Shown here: positions 5,244-53,800 of the stretch, piece after piece
Layout of the letters: each line of letters starts with the position of its first letter
Numbering within the stretch: position 1 is the stretch's first letter
DNA from: Minisyncoccota bacterium
GTDB lineage: Bacteria; Patescibacteriota; Minisyncoccia; Phycocordibacterales; UBA9973
Length of the DNA: 64,000 nucleotides
Direction: 5' to 3'
NCBI GenBank assembly: GCA_028718635.1
Contig: JAQULK010000001.1
Span: 396,818 to 460,817, forward strand
Notes under the pieces: model-generated
What the model was told of the DNA's origin: nothing
Seen by the model: the letters and a program-made list of their open reading frames with translations, nothing else
The model's database searches: none
Translations under genes and position numbers: made by a program

Positions 5244-6095
5244 TTAATTTACATAATCTATTTCTTTTCCATTTTCTGGTATTATTTTTTTTATCACTAA
5301 TTTTTTATTTTCTAATTTAGCTTCGGTTATTTTTATTCTTTTGCCATTTTTTATGAAATATATACCCGGCCAGCCGTAAAGCGCGCAATATTTAGTGTAA
5401 ATTTCTTTTGGCGAATCATTTAACAAATCCACCAAACCATCTTCTTTTTTGATTTTTTCACAATAGGTTGCTTTAGATTCATCTTGAGGTTTTGGAGTTA
5501 TTTTTTCTTTTATATAATCCTCCAGTACTTTTACTAATAATTTTCCGCCTTCTCGAAAAAGTTTTTCTTCTAAAATAGGCAAAAGAGGAGGCCAATCCTT
5601 GTCATCTATTTCGACATTTTTTTGCGCCACGATCGGTCCATGATCCATTTTCTCATCTAAAATTATTACTGTTGCTCCAATATCTCTTTCATTGTTGAGT
5701 ATCGATGATCTTACAGGGGAAGGTCCGCGCAATCGAGGCAACATTGAGGGATGTACATTTAAAATTCCATGCTTCGGCATGTTTAGGATTTTTTGGGGCA
5801 GAATTTTTCCATAAGCAGTTAAGACAAAAACATCATATTCCATAAGCCCTGTCGGGTGTCCAACACCCGACAGGAAGTTTTCATCAATAACTTTAGGCTG
5901 GAGTGTCGGTATCCCATGAGCCTCTGCCCATTTTTTTACTGGCGGAGCTTCAAAATGGTGACCTCGTCCGATTTTTAAGTCTGGGGCAGTTACCACAAGA
6001 GAAGGGAAATATCCATCTTCTGCAAGTTCTTCTAATACATACACAGCCAAGTCTGGTGTTCCAAAGAATACAAATTTTAAGTTTTTGTTTTGCAT
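5244..6095 (-). CDS. fmt: Methionyl-tRNA formyltransferase
   Basis: 'FFGTPDLAV..L..L......VVTAPD...GRG.....PVK..A..HGIP' N-terminal formyltransferase domain plus a C-terminal domain. Start probably at the internal Met (MQNKNLKF). Confidence 0.85.
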   Translation of the reverse strand: MQNKNLKFVFFGTPDLAVYVLEELAEDGYFPSLVVTAPDLKIGRGHHFEAPPVKKWAEAHGIPTLQPKVIDENFLSGVGHPTGLMEYDVFVLTAYGKILPQKILNMPKHGILNVHPSMLPRLRGPSPVRSSILNNERDIGATVIILDEKMDHGPIVAQKNVEIDDKDWPPLLPILEEKLFREGGKLLVKVLEDYIKEKITPKPQDESKATYCEKIKKEDGLVDLLNDSPKEIYTKYCALYGWPGIYFIKNGKRIKITEAKLENKKLVIKKIIPENGKEIDYVN

Positions 6096-6099
6096 AAAT

Positions 6100-6921
6100 T
6101 TATAAGCTATCAAATGGGCTTTTAATATTTTTTATCGCAGGATTGGTTACTTTTGTGTATAATTGTGTGGTTCTGATATTGGCGTGGCCTAAAAGCTCTT
6201 GCACATAACGCACGTCCACACCATTTTCCAAAAGGTGAGTGGCAAAACTATGACGAAGTGAGTGAAAAGTAGCTTCTTTATTAATATTGCATTTTTTTAA
6301 AGCGTTTTCAAAAATCTTTTGTGCGGTTCTTTCTGTTAATTTGCCGCCACGTTCACTAGCAAAAACATAGTCATTTAAATTTCTTCCAGTTATTGATTTT
6401 TCAATTTTTTTACTTAGTTTTTTCGGGAAAATAGTAATTCTATCTTTGTTGCCTTTTGCCCCTTTGATATGAATAGTTAATTCTGCTAAATTTAAGTCTT
6501 TAATTTTTAAATTTGTTGTTTCACTGACCCTGAATCCGGAAGCATATGATAGAGAAATTAATAGTTGATGTTTTTCATTACTTATTGAATCAATAATTTT
6601 TTCAATTTCATTTCTTGACAATACGATTGGCAATTTACTCGGTGTTTTTGCAAATTTAATGTCAATTTTATTATGAAACTTTAGTACATTCCAACAGAAA
6701 AAATTAATAGCTTGTAAGCTTTGATTGATGGTTTGCGAAGACATTTTTTTATCAATTTTTGACAATAAATATCGCTTAATAAAATCAACATCTACCGAAT
6801 CAAAATTGTTTTGCTTAGTACGCAAATATTCAGCTACACAGCCCACGTAACTTTTAATAGTTTTAGGACTATAATTTCTGAGTTTTAGCTCGTCTTCTAG
6901 TTTTTTTAAATATACTTTCAT
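6100..6921 (-). CDS. Tyrosine site-specific recombinase (XerC/XerD / phage-integrase family)
   Basis: 'HSLRHSFATHLLENGVDVRYVQELLGHANIRTTQLYTKV' carries the R-H-R-Y catalytic box. N-terminal SAM-like core-binding domain. Confidence 0.85.
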   Translation of the reverse strand: MKVYLKKLEDELKLRNYSPKTIKSYVGCVAEYLRTKQNNFDSVDVDFIKRYLLSKIDKKMSSQTINQSLQAINFFCWNVLKFHNKIDIKFAKTPSKLPIVLSRNEIEKIIDSISNEKHQLLISLSYASGFRVSETTNLKIKDLNLAELTIHIKGAKGNKDRITIFPKKLSKKIEKSITGRNLNDYVFASERGGKLTERTAQKIFENALKKCNINKEATFHSLRHSFATHLLENGVDVRYVQELLGHANIRTTQLYTKVTNPAIKNIKSPFDSL

Positions 6922-8551: not shown

Positions 8552-8603
8552 TACGAAGTAGCAATAAAATGGCAAAAAATTGCCGTCTTATTGCTACTTC
8601 GTA
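8552..8603. promoter_or_regulatory. Long perfect hairpin/palindrome (16-bp arms, nested 5-bp inner hairpin) ~80 nt upstream of the islet gene
   Basis: tacgaagtagcaataa ... ggcaa-aaaa-ttgcc ... ttattgctacttcgta. No T-tract on either side, so it is not a terminator. Possible operator or 5' leader structure. Confidence 0.4.
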
Positions 8604-8730: not shown

Positions 8731-8785
8731 GTTTTGGGCTTTGGGCATTCACCTCTTTAATTCCCCTCTGCCCAAAGCCCAAAAC
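8731..8785. repeat. 17-bp perfect inverted repeat (gttttgggctttgggca / tgcccaaagcccaaaac) with a 21-nt loop
   Basis: Seen directly. Lies in the non-coding spacer of the islet. Confidence 0.5.
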
Positions 8786-9620: not shown

Positions 9621-9660
9621 ACAGCACATGCGGTTCAGAAATTTCTCATTTAAAGAGAAA

Positions 9661-9676
9661 GGGGTCAGGTACCTTT
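9661..9676. repeat. REP-like sequence, left flank of the RAYT
   Basis: ggggtcaggtaccttt. Its inverse complement occurs twice at the 3' flank. Confidence 0.6.
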
Positions 9677-9703: not shown

Positions 9704-10375
9704 ATGCCACGTTCACCACGAGTCGATGTTGGAAATGAGTTATACCATGTGATCAACCGTGCTAATGCTCGTTTACCTATTTTCTTCAAAGAAGAAGATT
9801 TTGAACTTTTTGTTTCTATTTTAGAAGATGCACAAAAAAAATACGACATGAGAATTATTGCATATTGTTTAATGCCAAATCACTTTCATCTTGTTTTATA
9901 TCCAAGACAAGATAATGATTTGCAGAAATTTATGCAATGGGTAACACTTACTCACACTCAAAGATGGCACATCCATAACAAAACAATTGGTAGTGGACAT
10001 CTGTATCAAGGGAGATATAAATCTTTTTTAATAGAAGGGGATAAGCATCTTTTGTCTGTGATTCGTTATGTAGAACGCAATCCATTACGCGCAAAATTAG
10101 TTAAAAAAGCAGAGAATTGGAAATTTAACAGTTTGTCATATAGGCTTTTTAAAAATACTAATAAAAAACTTCTATCCAAATGGCCAATAGAAGAACCGAA
10201 AGATTATCTTTCTTTTGTAAATACACCGCAAACAAATTTTGAAGAGGAAAGTATTAGAATACCAATAATTAAAAGTAACCCATTTGGAAGCATTGATTGG
10301 TCGATTAAAACTATTAAAAAATTTGGTCTTGAATCAACAATTAGACAAAAAGGAAGACCTAGAAAAGGTACCTGA
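9704..10375 (+). CDS. REP-associated tyrosine transposase (RAYT; IS200/IS605-family Y1 transposase-like)
   Basis: 'YHVINRANARLPIF', 'IIAYCLMPNHFHLVLYP' (HUH motif) and 'GHLYQGRYKSFLIEGDKHLLSVIRYVERNPLRAKLV' (catalytic Y). The stop lies inside the 3' REP. Confidence 0.8.
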   Translation: MPRSPRVDVGNELYHVINRANARLPIFFKEEDFELFVSILEDAQKKYDMRIIAYCLMPNHFHLVLYPRQDNDLQKFMQWVTLTHTQRWHIHNKTIGSGHLYQGRYKSFLIEGDKHLLSVIRYVERNPLRAKLVKKAENWKFNSLSYRLFKNTNKKLLSKWPIEEPKDYLSFVNTPQTNFEEESIRIPIIKSNPFGSIDWSIKTIKKFGLESTIRQKGRPRKGT

Positions 10376-10419
10376 CCCCTTTTATTCCTAGAAAAGGTAC
10401 CTGACCCCTTTTATTCCTT
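10364..10419. repeat. Two tandem 28-bp REP copies (aaaaggtacctgaccccttttattcc x2), inverted relative to 9661..9676
   Basis: Direct tandem duplication seen in the sequence. Only two copies and no spacer periodicity, so not CRISPR. Confidence 0.6.
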
Positions 10420-13753: not shown

Positions 13754-13800
13754 TCACCTCTCCCCAACCCTCTCCTGTCAGGAGAGGGCGAAGGGTGAGG
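13754..13800. repeat. GC-rich palindromic element (family E, short copy) in the lepB/pth divergent intergenic region
   Basis: cacctctccccaaccctctcc-tgtc-aggagagggcgaagggtgagg. Same consensus as the in-frame insert in lepA at 26480..26551. Confidence 0.5.
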
Positions 13801-13807
13801 TTTTGTG

Positions 13808-26166: not shown

Positions 26167-26286
26167 TCCCGTTAGAAGCCGCGATCGCAATTTAAAAACA
26201 AACAAAAACATGAAATTAGAAATTATAAAAATTAATAATATTAAACATCAGATACGCGAGTTGATCGCGATCTGCTTCTAAACGGG
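26167..26286 (+). repeat. Family B ~120-nt stop-to-start intergenic element, copy 1, with a mini-ORF at 26210..26281
   Basis: Terminal inverted repeats tcccgttagaagccgcgatcgc / gcgatcgcgatctgcttctaaacggga. Starts 1 nt after the ABC-transporter TAA and ends at the lepA ATG. Encodes MKLEIIKINNIKHQIRELIAICF*. Confidence 0.7.
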
Positions 26287-28170
26287 ATGGATTTAAAACA
26301 CATTAGAAACTTTAGCATAATAGCGCACATTGACCACGGTAAAAGTACTTTAGCGGATAGAATGCTTGAAATTACGCATACAATAGAAACACGGAAAATG
26401 CGCAACCAGTTTTTAGACTCTATGGAACTGGAGCGCGAAAGAGGAATTACTATAAAAATGCAACCCGTTCGAATGGAATACACCCCTCCCCAAACCCCTC
26501 CCCAAAAGGGAGGGGCACCTTCTCTTTTGGAGAAGGCGGGGGAAGGGGTGTATATTTTAAATCTTATTGATACGCCCGGTCATATAGATTTTTCTTATGA
26601 AGTTTCTCGAGCATTAAAGGCGGTAGAGGGTTCTATTTTGCTTATTGACTCAACTCAAGGGGTGCAAGCGCAAACGCTTACCACTCTCGCTATGGCGCGA
26701 GAGGGAGGTCTTAAAATAATCCCAGTACTCTCTAAGATTGATTCGCCTTTATCCAGAGTTTCGGAGGTAAAAGATGAAGTAGTGGATCTTTTAAATTGCG
26801 ATCCGGATGAAATTTTATTAGTTTCTGGACGCACAGGAGAAGGAGTTGAAAATCTTCTTAAGGAAGTAATAAAACGAGTACCAGAACCAAAAGAAACCAT
26901 TTCGGACGTTGGACGTCTGGATTCCGGACGTCCAACGTCCGAAATCCTGCGCGCCTTAGTTTTTGATTTTAAATATTCAAATCATAGAGGGGTGATAGTT
27001 TTTGTGCGCGTCTTTGATGGAAAAGTCGCAAAGGGCGACAGTTTGGTTTTTGCAGTTTCTGGCGAGAAATTTACCGCTCTTGAAGTCGGAACTTTTTCTC
27101 CAGAAGAAACCCCGCGCGATTTTCTTTCTCCTGGGGACACGGGTTATATCGTCACTGGCATAAAGAAGCCCGGCATAGCATCCGTTGGAGATACTATTAC
27201 GATGTTTAAAAATCCTTTGCCTGCATTTGAGGGATATATGCAACCATTGCCCGTAGTGTGGGCGAGCGTTTTTCCAGAAGATGCGGATGATTTTGCAGAA
27301 TTAAAACTTGCTTTAGGAAAATTAAAACTTTCTGATTCAGCGTTTTCCTACGAAGAAGAATCTTCTGGGTCCTTGGGCAGGGGATTCAGATGCGGATTCT
27401 TAGGAATGCTTCATTTGGAAATTATCACTGAGAGACTAAAACGCGAATTTAATTTGGAATTAGTCATCACTACGCCTTCCATCACTTATGAAGTTTTGTT
27501 AAAAAATGGAAAAAGAGAAAAAGTTTATTCCCCGTTTCATTTTCCGGACGATGGCCTAATCGAGAAGGTTTTCGAGCCTTGGGTAAGTTTGAAGATTATT
27601 ACTCCAGTCCAATATGTCGGCAGTGTTATCCAACTTCTTTTTGACCATGAGGGAGAAGTAGGTGATACAGAGAATTTTGGAGACAATCGCTCTACTATCT
27701 CCGTGAAAATGCCCTTACGAGAGCTTATGCGGAATTTTTTCGATGAATTAAAAAGTATTTCTTCTGGTTATGCTTCAATTTCTTATTCCATTGGGGAATT
27801 GCGGGAGGCAAATGTCACTAGGCTTGATCTACTAGTAGCAGACGAAGTGGTGCCAGCTTTTTCTCGGGTGGTGGCTAAAAAGAGAGCTGAAGTTGAAGCA
27901 GAAAATGCCGTCTTAAAATTAGATAATTTATTGCCGAGACAAATGTTTACTTTGAAAATTCAAGGCCGAGCGCTTGGACGGATTATTTCTTCCCGCACGA
28001 AATTCGGCATGAAAAAGGATGTGACTCAGCATATGTATGGAGGCGATATTACGCGAAAAATGAAACTTCGAGAGAAACAAAAGAAAGGCAAAAAGAAGAT
28101 GAAGGAAAGGGGACGAGTGAACATTCCGCAAGATGTGTTTTTGAAAATGATGCGAACGGGGGAAAAGTAA
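26287..28170 (+). CDS. lepA: Elongation factor 4 (LepA) carrying two in-frame palindromic insertions
   Basis: 'IIAHIDHGKSTLADR' and 'DTPGHIDF' G-domain motifs. Extra segments 'TPPQTPPQKGGAPSLLEKAGEGV' and 'ISDVGRLDSGRPTSEI' relative to canonical LepA. Confidence 0.9.
   Translation: MDLKHIRNFSIIAHIDHGKSTLADRMLEITHTIETRKMRNQFLDSMELERERGITIKMQPVRMEYTPPQTPPQKGGAPSLLEKAGEGVYILNLIDTPGHIDFSYEVSRALKAVEGSILLIDSTQGVQAQTLTTLAMAREGGLKIIPVLSKIDSPLSRVSEVKDEVVDLLNCDPDEILLVSGRTGEGVENLLKEVIKRVPEPKETISDVGRLDSGRPTSEILRALVFDFKYSNHRGVIVFVRVFDGKVAKGDSLVFAVSGEKFTALEVGTFSPEETPRDFLSPGDTGYIVTGIKKPGIASVGDTITMFKNPLPAFEGYMQPLPVVWASVFPEDADDFAELKLALGKLKLSDSAFSYEEESSGSLGRGFRCGFLGMLHLEIITERLKREFNLELVITTPSITYEVLLKNGKREKVYSPFHFPDDGLIEKVFEPWVSLKIITPVQYVGSVIQLLFDHEGEVGDTENFGDNRSTISVKMPLRELMRNFFDELKSISSGYASISYSIGELREANVTRLDLLVADEVVPAFSRVVAKKRAEVEAENAVLKLDNLLPRQMFTLKIQGRALGRIISSRTKFGMKKDVTQHMYGGDITRKMKLREKQKKGKKKMKERGRVNIPQDVFLKMMRTGEK
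26480..26551 (+). repeat. Family E GC-rich palindromic element inserted in frame in lepA (72 nt, 24 codons)
   Basis: acacccctccccaaacccctcccc-aaaa-gggaggggcaccttctc-tttt-ggagaaggcgggggaaggggtgt. Nested inverted repeats. Confidence 0.65.
26899..26945 (+). repeat. Family F 19-bp-arm perfect palindrome inserted in frame in lepA
   Basis: atttcggacgttggacgtc-tggattccg-gacgtccaacgtccgaaat. Confidence 0.65.
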
Positions 28171-40284: not shown

Positions 40285-40989
40285 TTAATAATTTTTGCTC
40301 ATTCTTCTTACTTTTTCAAAAAGTAACATTATTATAATTGTGACGACCCACAGAAAAGTTAAAACTTTCAAGGAATCATTTCCATCGTTTCTTATTATAA
40401 AAAAATTAAAGGCGGTATGCAAGGCAATAGCAATCAAAAAACCAACGAAAAGAGAAATATTTTTTTCCCATTTTTTTGCGTAAAAGGAAATTCCTATGGA
40501 AATACCCACAATTCCGCTTGAGATGGCATGAAGCAGATTGGCTCCAAGAAATCTTAAGTTGCCAGTACTCAGGCTCTGGGTGGTGCCGATCGATGCAGGG
40601 AAAATTTTGAGCAAAAATAACATATTTTCAAGAGCGGCAAAGCCCAAAGCTGCGGTAATGATATATATTGGCCAATCGATCGGCTTACTAGCATTGTTTG
40701 TTTTACACAGGATTATCAATACCGCCAAATATTTCAAAATTTCTTCTACACTTGCCCACAATATAAGTTTACCTTCATATGAACCCACATTGTCTTGGAT
40801 AAATTTTTGAATAGGCAAAACCAATATAACCGCTATCATGCCCATAATAAATATTATGGTGACTAATCCTTTAGGTTCAGGATGCTCTTCATCTTCTTTT
40901 AGCCAAAACCAAAGCCATAAAAGAGAGGGGATGATCCCGCCAAAGAATGCTATCAGCAAAGTTTTGGGATCGATTGTTAAGATGGCCAT
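40285..40989 (-). CDS. PrsW-family intramembrane metalloprotease-like membrane protein
   Basis: Multi-TM. 'EEILKY' (EExxK), 'HAISSG' and 'HTAFNF' motifs. Confidence 0.55.
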   Translation of the reverse strand: MAILTIDPKTLLIAFFGGIIPSLLWLWFWLKEDEEHPEPKGLVTIIFIMGMIAVILVLPIQKFIQDNVGSYEGKLILWASVEEILKYLAVLIILCKTNNASKPIDWPIYIITAALGFAALENMLFLLKIFPASIGTTQSLSTGNLRFLGANLLHAISSGIVGISIGISFYAKKWEKNISLFVGFLIAIALHTAFNFFIIRNDGNDSLKVLTFLWVVTIIIMLLFEKVRRMSKNY

Positions 40990-43169
40990 TGTCCAATCAT
41001 TAAAAGTCCCGACCTATGTCGGGATCCCGACTCTGGTCGGGAATTTATAATTTGCCAAATTTCTTCTGTGACGAAAGGCATAAAAGGATGAAGTATTTTT
41101 AAACAATCTTTCCAGATTGAGGCTAAAGCAATTCTTCTTTCATCCGCTTTTTCACCGTTCGTTTTGAGAATCTCTTTTGTTTCCTCAATAATCTGATCAG
41201 CAAACCTGTGCCAAATATATTGGTATATTTTTTCTGACGCCAAATGGAAACGATAATTTTCCATATCAGTCGTTATATCTTCTTTGATTTCTTTAAACTC
41301 TTTTGTTAGTTTATTTTCTATAGTTTTTCCAAAGTTGTTTTCATCCACATTGTCTAAAATAAAACGGGTAATGTTCCAAATTTTATTTGCAAAATTTTTG
41401 TAGCCTTTTATTTTGTCCTCTGAAATTTTACTATCTGTGCCAGGCGCAGTGCCCACGATGAGCGCCATTCGTCCAGCATCGGCTCCGAATTTTTCCGCTA
41501 TATCAATAGGATCAAGCCCGTTATTTAGGGATTTAGACATCTTTCTTCCTTTTGCGTCCCGAACAGTTCCATGAAGGAATATATTTTTGAAAGGGACTTC
41601 ACCCAAAGCATATTCTGACATTAATACCATTCTCGCCACCCAAAAGAAAAGAATATCATAACCAGTTTCTAGGACGTCTGTGGGGTGATAGGTTTTTAGG
41701 TCTCCTGTTTTTTCGGGTTTACCCGCCGTAGTGGAAACGGAGGCGGGCCAGCCTAGAGTGGAAAAAGTCCAAAGTCCGGAAGAAAACCAAGTATCTAAGG
41801 TATCCTCATCTTGTTTCCAATTTTCACCAACAGGAGCTTTTGTGTCGCAATAAACTCCACCTTTACTGTCGTACCAAACTGGAATCCTGTGTCCATACCA
41901 AATTTGCCTTGAAATGCACCAATCGCGTAAATTTTCTATCCAGTGAAAATATGTTTTAGAAAAATAATCCGGAATAATTTTTATTTCTCCCTTGGAGAAT
42001 GGCTCACGCATCAAATCCTTGAGAGTTTTATTACCGCGTTCTTTTATAGGCTTATTTACGTTTATAAACCATTGCAATTTAGGAAGTGGTTCTATTGTTC
42101 CGCCAGTACGTTCAGCGGTAGCGATATTTTGTTTTATTTCTTCTTCTTTTTCTAGTAGATTTTGGGAGCGAAGCCATTCTACAATAATTTTTCTTGCTTC
42201 CGTTGTCTTTTTGCCTAGTAAACTTTCTCCGCCAATAGACATTTTGGCATATTCATTTATGACTTGCGGGCGAGGTAAGTCATGTCTGTCAGCCATTTCC
42301 CAGTCAATCATAGAATGGGCTGGAGTGACTCCAAGTGCTCCGGTGCCAAACTCTGGATCAACTTCTTTGTCAGCTATTATTTTAATATGAATTGGTACTT
42401 CACAAAACTTTAAATCATATTCTTTTCCAATAAATTTCTCATATCTTTTATCGTCAGGATGCACCGCTACAGCGGTGTCGCCGATCTTTGTTTCAGGTCT
42501 GGTGGTTGAAATTGCAATGGGAAATTCGTGGGAATACTTAAAAGTATAAAGCTTCGCTTCGCGTTCCTCATAAACTATTTCATCATCAGAAATTGTGGTT
42601 TGGCCTTTTGGGTCCCAATTTACTATTCTATTACCACGATAGATAAGTTCATCGTCATACATTTTCTTGAATATCGTGTTTACAGCAAGATTTCTTTTAT
42701 CATCTAAAGTAAAAGCTTCACGAGACCAGTCACATGAGGCGCCCATCGTTCTCATCTGCGATGTCATAATATCTCTATTTTTTTCTACAAATTCATCAAT
42801 GCGTTTTAGCAACTTTTCTCTCCCCAAATCATGCCTGGAAAGACCTTCCTTTTTTTGAATTTCTTTTTCAACTTTTGATTGGGTAGCAATGGAGGCATGA
42901 TCTGTTCCGGGCAACCAAAGCGTTTTATATCCTCGCATACGCTTGTAACGAATCATAATGTCTTCGAGCGTTAAAAAAAGGGCATGCCCCATGTGCAAAG
43001 TGCCGGTAGCGTTTGGCGGAGGCATCATGATAGTGAAAGCTTCTTTTTGCTGTCCGTCTTCCTTGCCAGGCAGATTGTCTGGGTTAAAAAAACCGCTTTC
43101 TTCCCAAAGTTTGTAAATTCTTTTTTCTGTATTTTTGGGGTCGTACGGCTTGAGTAACTTTTCGTTCAT
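40977..43169 (-). CDS. valS: Valyl-tRNA synthetase (short form, 730 aa, no C-terminal coiled coil)
   Basis: HIGH 'GTLHMGHA', KMSKS 'RKMSKS'. Two tandem cccgac-N4-gtcggg hairpins lie in the 3' end. Confidence 0.9.
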   Translation of the reverse strand: MNEKLLKPYDPKNTEKRIYKLWEESGFFNPDNLPGKEDGQQKEAFTIMMPPPNATGTLHMGHALFLTLEDIMIRYKRMRGYKTLWLPGTDHASIATQSKVEKEIQKKEGLSRHDLGREKLLKRIDEFVEKNRDIMTSQMRTMGASCDWSREAFTLDDKRNLAVNTIFKKMYDDELIYRGNRIVNWDPKGQTTISDDEIVYEEREAKLYTFKYSHEFPIAISTTRPETKIGDTAVAVHPDDKRYEKFIGKEYDLKFCEVPIHIKIIADKEVDPEFGTGALGVTPAHSMIDWEMADRHDLPRPQVINEYAKMSIGGESLLGKKTTEARKIIVEWLRSQNLLEKEEEIKQNIATAERTGGTIEPLPKLQWFINVNKPIKERGNKTLKDLMREPFSKGEIKIIPDYFSKTYFHWIENLRDWCISRQIWYGHRIPVWYDSKGGVYCDTKAPVGENWKQDEDTLDTWFSSGLWTFSTLGWPASVSTTAGKPEKTGDLKTYHPTDVLETGYDILFFWVARMVLMSEYALGEVPFKNIFLHGTVRDAKGRKMSKSLNNGLDPIDIAEKFGADAGRMALIVGTAPGTDSKISEDKIKGYKNFANKIWNITRFILDNVDENNFGKTIENKLTKEFKEIKEDITTDMENYRFHLASEKIYQYIWHRFADQIIEETKEILKTNGEKADERRIALASIWKDCLKILHPFMPFVTEEIWQIINSRPESGSRHRSGLLMIGQWPS

Positions 43170-45511: not shown

Positions 45512-45553
45512 ACTTGTGCAACATCCGATGTTGCACAAGTTTATTTTGCTTTT
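45512..45553. terminator. Intrinsic terminator (13-bp stem acttgtgcaacat/atgttgcacaagt) after tRNA-Ser, overlapping the trxB stop
   Basis: Hairpin followed by ttattttgctttt. Confidence 0.6.
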
Positions 45554-46545
45554 AGAGTAATATAGATATCTTCTATGGCGCGGACGGCATCGCCGGCTGC
45601 GATGAGGTTTTGATGATAGTGAATATTAGTGCAGTCCCCAGCAGCCCAAATTCCAAGGACTTCTGTTTTTTGGGACCAAGCATCTATTTTTACTTTACCT
45701 ATTTCATCTAAAGGAACCAAATCTTTTACAAAGTCAGTATTTGGAATCTGTCCGATTTCTACGAAAATGCCTGCTACTTTTAATTCTTTTTGTTCTCCGG
45801 AAATTTTATCCTTATAAATTATTCCTTCTACAAATTTATCGCCCTGTATTTCTAAAATATCAGCATTTTTTATTATTTTTATTTTTGGATTTTTTAAAAT
45901 TTTATCAATTGTAGTTTGGTCAGCGCGAAAAGAGTCGCTTCTGATTATAAGCGTGACAGATTTACAATATGCTAAAAGCTGGGAGGCTGATCCGAAAGCG
46001 GCATTACCTCCGCCGATCACAGCCACATCCATGTCTGCAAAAAGTGGACCATCACAACTGGCGCAGTAGGTAAGGCCTTTGTGCTCTAAAGTATCTGCAT
46101 TCTTAGCGGTGAGTTTTCTGTGTCCACTGCCGCTCCCTATTAAAATTGTTTTAGTTTCAAATTCCTTTCCAGATTCTGTTTTTACAGAAAAAAAGGAAGC
46201 AAGGCTTCCTTCAGCTCTTCCTTCAGCTGAAGGAAGCCTTGCTTCCTTTTTTTTAATTGCTGTTACTTTTTCGCCTTCTTTTACTTCTAGACTTTCTCCC
46301 ACATTTTCTAAAACATGTTTTTTAAAATTTTCTGCAAGTTGTGCTCCGGAGATAGCAGGGGATCCTATCCAATTTTTAATTTCTTCTGAAGCTATGCTCT
46401 GCCCACCCCACTCTGAAATAACAAAAAGTGTCTTCAGTTTCTTTCGAGCTGCGTAAACAGCCGCTGCGCTCCCAGCCGGCCCACCTCCAATAATTATTAG
46501 ATCGTAAATCATTTGCATATTATACATCATGAATAGGAATTTCAA
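45541..46545 (-). CDS. trxB: Thioredoxin-disulfide reductase with an in-frame palindromic insertion
   Basis: 'IIGGGPAGSAAAVYAAR' FAD site, 'CASCDG' redox centre. Extra 'KKEARLPSAEGRAEGSLASFF' segment. Confidence 0.85.
   Translation of the reverse strand: MKFLFMMYNMQMIYDLIIIGGGPAGSAAAVYAARKKLKTLFVISEWGGQSIASEEIKNWIGSPAISGAQLAENFKKHVLENVGESLEVKEGEKVTAIKKKEARLPSAEGRAEGSLASFFSVKTESGKEFETKTILIGSGSGHRKLTAKNADTLEHKGLTYCASCDGPLFADMDVAVIGGGNAAFGSASQLLAYCKSVTLIIRSDSFRADQTTIDKILKNPKIKIIKNADILEIQGDKFVEGIIYKDKISGEQKELKVAGIFVEIGQIPNTDFVKDLVPLDEIGKVKIDAWSQKTEVLGIWAAGDCTNIHYHQNLIAAGDAVRAIEDIYITLKAK
46187..46253. repeat. Family G 21-bp-arm perfect palindrome flanked by A7/T9, inserted in frame in trxB
   Basis: aaaaaaa-ggaagcaaggcttccttcagc-tcttccttca-gctgaaggaagccttgcttcc-ttttttttt. 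Confidence 0.7.
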
Positions 46546-52493: not shown

Positions 52494-53390
52494 ATGGCCT
52501 CGCCTATAGGACAACGGCCGAAGGAGAGTATACACCAGACAGTTCTTTTAAATGAAACAATAGAAGGTTTGAACTTGAAAATAGATTCTGTCGTTTTGGA
52601 TTGCACTTTTGGGGGAGGCGGACATAGCCTCGAGATCTTAAAAAGATTTCCAAAAGTGAAAATTATTGCGCTTGATCAAGACAAAGGTGTGTGGAGAAAT
52701 AATGATAAGAGAATTTCTTTTCATAATGAAAATTTTTCCAATCTAGATAAAGTATTGAAGGAAGAAAAAGTGGATGGCATTATCTTTGATTTAGGTTTGA
52801 GTTCTGACCAATTGGAAAATTCTGGACGAGGATTTTCTTTTATGAAAAATGAGCCTTTGCTTATGACCATGAAAGAAAATCCTCAGGCAGAAGATCTCAC
52901 TGCGATGGATATCGTAAACACATGGAATGAGAAAAGTTTGGCTGACATTATTTATGGTTACGGAGAAGAAAGATACAGCAGAAGGATAGCCAAAGGAATC
53001 GTGGAAGCAAGAAAGAAAGGAAAGATAGAGACGACCTTCGATTTAGTAAAGATAATCAGCGAGTCAGTTCCAGCATCATATAAAAGAGGGAGATTGCATC
53101 CAGCCACCAAAACATTTCAAGCATTACGAATCGCAGTCAATGATGAGTTAGGAGTTTTAAAAGATGGTTTGGAAAAAGGATTTGGCAAATTAAAGACGGG
53201 TGGAAGGATGGCAGTAATTTCTTTCCATAGCCTAGAAGACAGGATAGTAAAAAGATTTTATAAAGAATTAGAAAAAGAAGGAAAAGTAAAATTAATAAAT
53301 AAGAAAATCATTTTAGCAAGCGATGAAGAGTTAAAAAATAATCCCCGATCAAGAAGCGCAAAATTAAGAGTTATGGAAAAAATAAAATAA
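52494..53390 (+). CDS. rsmH: 16S rRNA (cytosine1402-N4)-methyltransferase RsmH
   Basis: 'LDCTFGGGGHS' SAM motif, 'FDLGLSSDQL'. Confidence 0.9.
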   Translation: MASPIGQRPKESIHQTVLLNETIEGLNLKIDSVVLDCTFGGGGHSLEILKRFPKVKIIALDQDKGVWRNNDKRISFHNENFSNLDKVLKEEKVDGIIFDLGLSSDQLENSGRGFSFMKNEPLLMTMKENPQAEDLTAMDIVNTWNEKSLADIIYGYGEERYSRRIAKGIVEARKKGKIETTFDLVKIISESVPASYKRGRLHPATKTFQALRIAVNDELGVLKDGLEKGFGKLKTGGRMAVISFHSLEDRIVKRFYKELEKEGKVKLINKKIILASDEELKNNPRSRSAKLRVMEKIK

Positions 53391-53800
53391 TGAGACAAGC
53401 AACCTTACAATTAAAAACACGAATATCCAATGTAAATATTATGAACAATAATATTGAAATTAAAAAAAATATTTTGTATACAATGATCTTTATTTTTGCG
53501 GGTTTGGCGCTTTTTTATGTATTTATTTTGGGAAACATGGTTTTCAACATTGTGGAAAGAAGAAATTTAGAAAAAGAAATGCTTTCTTTGTCCAATGAGG
53601 TGGGCAACTTACAAGTTTCTTATTTAGCTGTTTCAAATAGTGTTGATATGAATCTTTCATCTTCTATGGGATTTAAGGAAACCAAGGCAACTTTTGCCAC
53701 TCGAAAAACCCTCGGCCGTAGCCCTACGGGCGAGGCTCTCGGATTCAATGCAAGCAGTGATCATCTTGGAAACGTAAAATTTGCCAATAATGAAATCTAG
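53390..53800 (+). CDS. FtsL-like cell-division protein (TM plus coiled coil). True start probably internal (MNNNIEI, ~53438)
   Basis: In the ftsL position between rsmH and ftsI. TM 'ILYTMIFIFAGLALFYVFIL' then coiled coil. Confidence 0.5.
   Translation: MRQATLQLKTRISNVNIMNNNIEIKKNILYTMIFIFAGLALFYVFILGNMVFNIVERRNLEKEMLSLSNEVGNLQVSYLAVSNSVDMNLSSSMGFKETKATFATRKTLGRSPTGEALGFNASSDHLGNVKFANNEI

Follow-up and report, generated by a model that had tools for sequence, protein, structure and literature searches.

Rickettsia palindromic elements (RPEs) reportedly lie in frame in unrelated housekeeping genes and add short peptides to their products, as Ogata and co-workers are said to have described in 2000. 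They are in-frame palindromic repeats of ~150 bp in the alphaproteobacterium Rickettsia (PMC10969869). We analyzed two GC-rich palindromes that lie in frame in lepA, the gene for the essential translation factor elongation factor 4 (EF4), in a 64-kb stretch of contig JAQULK010000001.1 of a Minisyncoccota bacterium (the window, meaning the whole stretch of DNA under analysis), together with the repeat families to which they belong. We regard it as likely that both palindromes are dispersed elements inside housekeeping genes, one resembling repetitive extragenic palindromic (REP) sequences and the REP doublets forming hairpins (REPINs), the other from a second hairpin family. This reading draws on the anatomy of the elements, their absence from close relatives, their dispersal, the linkage of one family to a transposase gene and a bias in reading frame.

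MITEs (miniature transposable elements with inverted repeats), such as Correia or IS630-derived elements, have terminal inverted repeats and a TA duplication. The GC clusters and double-hairpin elements of fungal mitochondria are GC-rich sequences in an AT-rich compact genome, and some of them are in frame. REP/REPIN sequences and REP-associated tyrosine transposases (RAYTs), as in Escherichia coli and Pseudomonas, are defined by a transposase gene flanked by the repeats and by inverted doublets (PMC5581495). REP singlets and dimers have also been described inside open reading frames (ORFs) of several bacteria, including those of tRNA synthetases, where they encode 20–30 aa (Di Nocera et al., 2013; PMC3733652), and RPE-4 and RPE-6 have been equated with CGTC-type REPs (PMC3733652).

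Two palindromic elements in lepA

The lepA coding sequence (26287–28170, forward strand; 627 aa) is intact, as judged from the ORF list, Pfam and matches to EF4 structures. Its product contains the Pfam domains GTP_EFTU, GTP_EFTU_D2, EFG_III, EFG_C and LepA_C and matched solved EF4 structures at E = 1e-164. The host is a Paceibacteria-type genome of 37% GC, and GC content within the window is 32–42%. The original prediction of two in-frame GC-rich palindromes was confirmed, at 26478–26553 (site 1) and 26899–26945 (site 2), and both encoded peptides were as first written.

The site-1 element is a GC-rich nested palindrome with a three-way structure, in frame on the forward strand and read (Y)TPPQTPPQKGGAPSLLEKAGEGV(Y); the nesting had been recognized, and its extent, first given as 72 nt (26480–26551), is 76 nt (26478–26553) here. 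An outer stem of 14 nt, 93% complementary, encloses two hairpins on the forward strand, CCCCTCCCC-AAA-AGGGAGGGG (26495–26515) and CCTTCTC-TTTTG-GAGAAGG (26518–26536). A 70-nt core (26481–26550, forward strand) has the inverted ends CACCCCTCCCC / GGGGAAGGGGTG and TA at either side. As single-stranded DNA the element was predicted to fold at -29.1 kcal/mol (z = -6.5), and 0 of 200 shuffled sequences were as stable.

The site-2 element is a 47-nt REPIN-like inverted doublet, in frame on the forward strand and read ISDVGRLDSGRPTSEI. Its arms measure 23 nt with 1 mismatch and are separated by 1 nt; the perfect 19-nt arms of the original prediction lie inside them. The left hairpin unit, TCGGACGT-TGG-ACGTCTGGA (26902–26921, forward strand), is of the ‘AC’ subtype, and the right unit (26923–26942, reverse strand) is its inverted copy. 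The predicted DNA fold reached -25.8 kcal/mol (z = -8.2; 0/200 shuffles as stable). A predicted LepA peptide that would span an insert is, for example, ISDVGRLDSGRPTSEILR. No second full copy of either palindrome was found in the 64-kb window, and Rfam gave no match in lepA, returning tRNAs only.

The sites were mapped by alignment to solved EF4 structures and from Pfam domain limits; an AlphaFold LepA model was poor (mean pLDDT, the predicted local distance difference test score, 46) and was not used. In the alignment with Thermus EF4, site 1 falls in a turn, with the strand that follows switch I on one side and the strand entering DTPGH on the other, and site 2 follows the PPPK motif, between the Pfam matches of the G domain and domain II. 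The inserts had been placed between conserved LepA motifs, and this holds at both sites (switch I/DTPGH and G domain/domain II). The frame is kept, as had been claimed; the added lengths are smaller than 24 and 16 codons, with net gains over empty alleles of 17 codons at site 1 and 10 codons at site 2 in a codon alignment (+15 and +11 relative to Thermus EF4). Filled lepA alleles lack six or seven ancestral loop codons, so the elements are replacements or trimmed insertions rather than clean insertions.

A third element abuts the gene. From the stop codon of an ABC-transporter gene to the lepA start codon (26168–26286) lies a ~118-nt MITE-like insertion; its terminal inverted repeats, ~26 nt long, are imperfect and its middle is AT-rich, and the corresponding gap is only ~7–14 nt in four syntenic relatives (L001, L002, L003 and L083). 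Three different inserted elements are thus associated with lepA.

We compared the 120 best LepA homologues, 81–91% identical and named Paceibacterota, Parcubacteria or Nomurabacteria by public sources; 121 sequences entered the presence and absence counts, and DNA came from 80 species-representative genomes and three metagenome contigs. LepA length ranged from 595 to 664 aa among these homologues because at least five loops hold alternative inserted peptide families. The alignment places these hot spots after query residues 65, ~140, 205, ~410 and ~465, with several recurring peptide families at each. The inserted families were palindromic wherever DNA was readable. A comparison with close orthologues, originally proposed as a check, bore out the prediction: both sites are empty in the closest homologue (P0002, 91–95% identical), and P0001/L001 has site 2 only. 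Site 1 was empty in 64/121 sequences and site 2 in 75/121; for the peptide families only these totals and the site-2 counts were used, given that the TPPQ pattern also hits GTPPQQ and mixes two site-1 families. Placed on a neighbour-joining tree of core columns, the sequences that carry the site-2 doublet (13) are scattered and need at least 10 changes; this tree is weakly resolved, and recombination may have contributed to the pattern. Copies also decay, and the one in L001 has several arm mismatches.

Dispersed hairpin families and a linked transposase gene

The site-2 unit is a ~20-nt hairpin, TCGGACGT-TGG-ACGTCCGA, and the window palindrome consists of two inverted copies of it and a short spacer. 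A sister subtype reads TCGGGTGT-TGG-ACACCCGA. The general formula is TCGG(AC/GT)GT-TGG-AC(GT/AC)CCGA, with stems extending to 9–16 bp, which agrees with the 20–40 nt of a REP unit. Stem changes between the subtypes were always compensatory, and the outer stem bases varied among copies with complementarity kept. At lepA site 2 of L081 and L082, which reads CTGTCGGGTGTTGGACACC-TGAATTC-CGGGTGTCCAACACCCGACAT, each AC/GT step is swapped and pairing is retained. The sequence CTGTCGGGTGTTGGACACC (19 identical bases) is common to these two lepA genes and to fmt of the window (5244–6113, reverse strand). There, a singlet of the ‘GT’ subtype, CCTGTCGGGTGT-TGG-ACACCCGACAGG (5848–5874, reverse strand; complete sequence CCTGTCGGGTGTTGGACACCCGACAGG; fold z = -7.0), lies in frame, reads LSGVGHPTG and adds 4 aa relative to the L162 orthologue. 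The further copies that the original prediction had proposed to look for thus exist as related units, in fmt and in other genes.

A metagenome collection was scanned with a pattern covering both subtypes. One of the two self-complementary versions of the stem was present in 83 of 95 matches in AT-rich contigs versus 5 of 44 in GC-rich contigs, so that the GC-rich matches are chance hits. Matches from a scan of viral contigs had non-complementary stems and were set aside as chance only. Proteins of the AT-rich carrier contigs are named Paceibacterota or Nomurabacteria by public sources. The count came to 99 site-2 elements, of which 70 are singlets, 27 are inverted doublets and 2 are tandem pairs, with 3 to 5 units in several contigs and up to 5 per 10–13 kb near the transposase gene described below. 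ORFs of ≥80 aa contain 63 of the 99 elements, and ORFs of ≥300 aa contain 26. Units also occur in intergenic DNA, besides the in-frame copies in ~13 housekeeping genes. The hosts identified with NCBIfam are MurE, GatB, TopA, PurH, MurD, MnmA, LeuRS, TrxB, NifS/IscS and PurL; LepA and Fmt are further in-frame hosts, and SMC was identified by eye only. The GatB singlet of L094 equals the doublet of L130 minus 18 nt between CAGG repeats.

Elsewhere, too, at least two different GC-rich palindromic peptide inserts often share a single gene (L094 GatB, L103 TopA, L141 PurH and L198 SMC). The TopA insert PEGKQASDGAG belongs to a family that also occurs at LepA site 4.

Translation of the site-2 unit gives no stop in any of its six frames, and every in-gene copy is stop-free and in frame. 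At 14 of 18 distinct gene-sites the stem is nevertheless read S-(G/D)-V-x-(H/R)-P (p = 1.4e-4); Cys, Trp and Arg codons appear in the disfavoured frames. The dominance of one frame despite the lack of stops argues that the inserts are translated and filtered at the peptide level.

Units of the same family flank a candidate mobilizing gene. A 219-aa ORF in five contigs (L139, L100, L210, L098 and L173) has a site-2 unit 7–25 nt from each end and, in all five, one more unit inside it, in frame; flanking and internal units are of the same subtype in every contig. The ORF scored 23–26 bits against Pfam Y1_Tnp (cutoff 23) and 24 bits against the NCBIfam RAYT model REP_Tyr_transpos (cutoff 80), and it contains the HUH motif NHFHF. 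Its protein has >3000 homologues; to some of them the Joint Genome Institute (JGI) gives the name ‘REP element-mobilizing transposase RayT’ and an attribution to Nomurabacteria, Paceibacterota or Zambryskibacteria. Among the 120 best of these homologues (P0121–P0240), nearly all have S-(G/D)-V-(G/Q)-(H/R)-P at the internal unit, with its hairpin loop in one orientation or the other (SGVGHP or SGVQHP). Within this RAYT-like transposase (10503–11159 in L139) and nearly all of the 120 homologues, the enzyme's own unit lies in frame just before the HUH strand. The hairpins TCGGGTGTTGGACACCCGA / TCGGACGTTGGACGTCCGA are its putative substrates. Dispersal of the unit in genes and intergenic DNA, together with the flanked transposase gene, marks the site-2 family as REP/REPIN-like.

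The site-1 element belongs to a separate, dispersed family with CCCCTCCCC/GGGGAGGGG hairpins. The same lepA site holds this same family in L010 and L083, and in L082 a 78-nt element with the architecture of the window element. LeuRS of L008 carries two pieces related to it, and sister families lie in MnmA, PurH, SMC and a TsaD-like gene. The motif ACCCCTCCCC occurs 81 times across the fetched AT-rich DNA. In the window, in L010 and in L082 the element has TA on either side; this TA also extends the palindrome, and empty alleles show no clean TA site. No parent insertion sequence with site-1 ends was found in the 2.2 Mb of fetched DNA, in a search that covered transposases of the Y1 class. An intergenic copy of another family of this group, ACCTC.CCC...CCCTCTCCTG.CAGGAGAGGG...GGGTGAGGT, lies upstream of pth (13756–13805, forward strand); the same family sits in lepA site 1 of L003 and in lepA site 2 of L010.

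The LeuRS frame of the Nomurabacteria contig L008 (1–2031) begins with a stretch resembling a DUF559/Vsr-type endonuclease (VIEIDGDIH...LRF).

Other hairpins and the Y1 gene of the window

The strongest palindrome of the window lies in trxB, the thioredoxin reductase gene (45541–46545, reverse strand), and belongs to neither lepA family. It measures 66 nt with perfect 29-nt arms (46188–46253, reverse strand), is in frame, reads KKKEARLPSAEGRAEGSLASFF and is a doublet of the hairpin family GGAAGCAAGGCTTCC, which in L108 and L166 also flanks a Y1 gene. In L145 and L193 this TrxB loop carries an SGVGH/SDVGR doublet, and in L023 the loop is empty, so that here, as at the LepA sites, one loop holds unrelated families in different genomes. 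In valS (40977–43169, reverse strand), two adjacent TCCCGAC-N4-GTCGGGA hairpins with 7-bp stems (41003–41046, reverse strand; z = -6.0) lie in frame near the C-terminus, read SRPESGSRHRSG and add ~7 aa relative to ~40 orthologues that lack them. An intergenic hairpin after tRNA-Ser, ACTTGTGCAACATC-C-GATGTTGCACAAGT (45512–45540), has a core that resembles the hairpins flanking the Y1 gene of L049.

The window itself contains an IS200-like Y1 (RAYT-like) gene of 223 aa (9704–10375, forward strand), detected by tblastn and scoring 61 bits against Pfam Y1_Tnp (E = 1.5e-16). It is flanked by an inverted repeat of its own, AAGGGGTCAGGTACCTT, with one copy upstream (9659–9675, forward strand) and two inverted copies downstream (10365–10381 and 10394–10410, reverse strand); no further copies were found in the window or in any fetched locus. 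Eleven Y1 genes other than the type linked to the site-2 unit each have a flanking repeat of their own, hairpin-forming in most; this holds for every other Y1 gene in the fetched DNA, and the window gene is among them.

Upstream of this Y1 region, a gene-poor segment contains two strong intergenic palindromes, at 8552–8603 (24-nt arms) and 8731–8785 (17-nt arms). A GC-rich hairpin with a 12-bp stem, CCTCGGCCGTAGCCCTACGGGCGAGG (53710–53735), lies in a small ORF resembling a membrane protein (53390–53800, forward strand) and reads LGRSPTGEA. A scan of the window for GC-rich islands proved non-specific, being dominated by Gly-rich motifs, and was discarded.

Relation to described systems, alternatives and implications

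The best label for site 2 is an in-frame REP/REPIN-like element, and for site 1 an RPE/MITE-like repeat element. The likeness to RPEs, on which the original prediction was built, is supported: the palindromic repeats are in frame in intact genes, form a multi-copy family in unrelated housekeeping genes, add short peptides and occur in a small-genome bacterium. Site 2 is nevertheless better called a REP doublet (REPIN) with a Y1/RAYT-like transposase. The elements described here are 27–76 nt long and GC-rich (47 and 70–76 nt, with singlets of ~25 nt) compared with ~150 bp, they come from another phylum, and one family is linked to a Y1 transposase; RPEs are set apart here by their descriptions rather than by sequence. 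The LepA relatives belong to Paceibacterota and similar groups and not to Rickettsia, which makes an origin independent of RPEs plausible by host lineage.

With REP/REPIN-RAYT systems the site-2 family shares a ~20–25-nt hairpin unit, inverted doublets (27/99) that fold as one long hairpin, the presence of its units on both sides of a Y1 HUH gene, and a separate flanking repeat for each transposase gene seen. It differs in location, with one to two thirds of the sampled copies in ORFs where classical REPs are almost all extragenic, and in sequence, with GTAG absent and CGTC found only inside the stem of the AC subtype and missing from the GT subtype. The transposase gene here also carries its own unit in frame, and the lineage lies outside those described. 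Compared with intragenic REPs, the terminal tags GTAG/CGTC are absent as a rule, and most host genes serve translation, the cell wall or purine synthesis, in place of the replication and repair genes of that study; a reading-frame bias like the present one is not reported there (Di Nocera et al., 2013; PMC3733652).

The site-1 element, with inverted ends of 11–14 nt and TA on both sides, and the element upstream of lepA, with its ~26-nt inverted ends, resemble MITEs. However, 70 nt puts the site-1 element at the lower end of the size range, its TA may simply belong to the palindrome, and the search of the fetched DNA for a parent insertion sequence was negative. The GC clusters of fungal mitochondria belong to an unrelated genetic system and were compared by description, not by sequence or enzyme.

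In the mechanism that we propose, the lepA palindromes would be copies of short GC-rich hairpin repeats that populate an AT-rich, gene-dense lineage. A Y1 HUH (IS200-related) enzyme may recognize the hairpin on single-stranded DNA and copy or move singlets and doublets in trans. Site 2 would then be an inverted doublet of the REP-like unit that flanks the gene of the Y1 HUH RAYT-like transposase, and site 1 an element of 70 nt, its inverted ends enclosing two inner hairpins, from the second, CCCCTCCCC/GGGGAGGGG family. Most insertions into genes would be lost, and the remainder filtered by selection for tolerant loops and a benign frame; the lepA palindromes would survive because they lie in two loops without disturbing the frame, are free of stops and encode small peptides rich in Gly, Pro and Ser. 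Point mutation and in-frame deletion would erode the copies afterwards. What we infer from these patterns is transposition itself, with its direction and timing, and the neutrality of the peptides.

Several observations weigh against this proposal. Translation and mobility of the inserts are read here from sequence alone. The Y1 and RAYT model scores of the cognate transposase type are marginal, and this type is not present in the 64-kb window; the Y1 gene of the window is 25% identical to the L139 type and has a different flanking repeat. A Y1-class profile search of the 2.2 Mb of fetched DNA found no transposase linked to the site-1 families. Site-2 units number two in the 64-kb window and only one in 1.39 Mb around lepA of 80 other genomes. 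The net gains of 17 and 10 codons are smaller than the palindromes, so that these are not clean insertions, and no clear target duplication was seen at the lepA sites in the codon alignment with empty alleles. Finally, many copies lie at orthologous sites in divergent contigs, which old vertical inheritance or recombination fits as well as repeated insertion does.

An alternative view is that the segments are old, vertically inherited loop expansions, no longer mobile and kept for a function: the peptide might modulate EF4 on the ribosome, or a hairpin in the mRNA might set the pace of translation. Occupied gene-sites in divergent contigs (LepA site 2, GatB, MurE, PurH and TrxB), the strong frame bias, the nearly perfect arms of the window site-2 copy and the compensatory stem changes between subtypes all fit such conservation. 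However, one identical unit turns up in ~13 unrelated proteins, between genes and on both sides of a transposase gene; the segments are missing from close relatives, and their carriers lie dispersed across the tree. Unrelated families in the same loop across genomes and the decay of copies point the same way, and we consider vertical inheritance for function unlikely. The palindromes might also have formed in place, by template switching or snap-back synthesis and without a mobile element. Net gains below palindrome length with ancestral loop codons overwritten, outer stem bases that vary yet stay complementary, and the hairpin loop found in either orientation at one position of the transposase homologues are what such events could leave. 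It is very unlikely that they account for the same 19–25-nt core in many genes and genomes and its pairing with a transposase, although template switching may still extend or repair arms after insertion.

Insertions in rRNA genes are known in bacteria of the candidate phyla radiation (CPR), and strong hairpins are a feature of translational bypass elements. Removal of the segments before the mature protein, as mini-introns, by bypass or as intein-like elements, is still less probable: in-gene copies are stop-free and in frame with one frame dominant, which is expected only if they are translated, sizes of 27–76 nt are far below those of inteins or self-splicing introns, and no Rfam family matched in lepA. 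An assembly or sequencing artefact, for instance a chimeric inverted duplication, is hardly credible. Library preparation or assembly can create palindromes, and the sequence probably comes from a metagenome assembly; however, homologous inserts lie at the same sites in independent assemblies of several studies and several sources, the frame is kept and the point differences resemble normal divergence.

These data suggest that dispersed REP/REPIN-like and second-family hairpin elements probably entered housekeeping genes of this lineage. A more speculative extension, which we put forward as doubtful, is that Paceibacteria-type REP-RAYT systems have adapted to live in coding sequence: their unit is open in six frames with one benign frame, they would return repeatedly to a few loops, possibly by turnover at occupied sites, and the copy inside the transposase gene may be self-regulating. 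Were this so, the hairpins would keep supplying loop variants to essential proteins in genomes with almost no intergenic space. The kind of system is known. In the literature searched there was no report of in-frame palindromic, REP or RAYT elements for CPR bacteria, and the library was incomplete, so that this is weak evidence of novelty.

If correct, the main reading would mean that essential genes of another group of bacteria with small genomes, unrelated to Rickettsia, can be colonized by selfish hairpin repeats, and that in one family the likely mobilizing enzyme adjoins the repeat, which the Rickettsia elements never offered. With its transposase, its 20-nt hairpin and dozens of alleles that occur naturally with or without the insert, this family would form a test system for how proteins acquire loop insertions and tolerate them. 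The elements would explain why conserved proteins in CPR metagenome bins vary so puzzlingly in length, and GC-rich islands of this kind should not be dismissed as misassembly or contaminating sequence.

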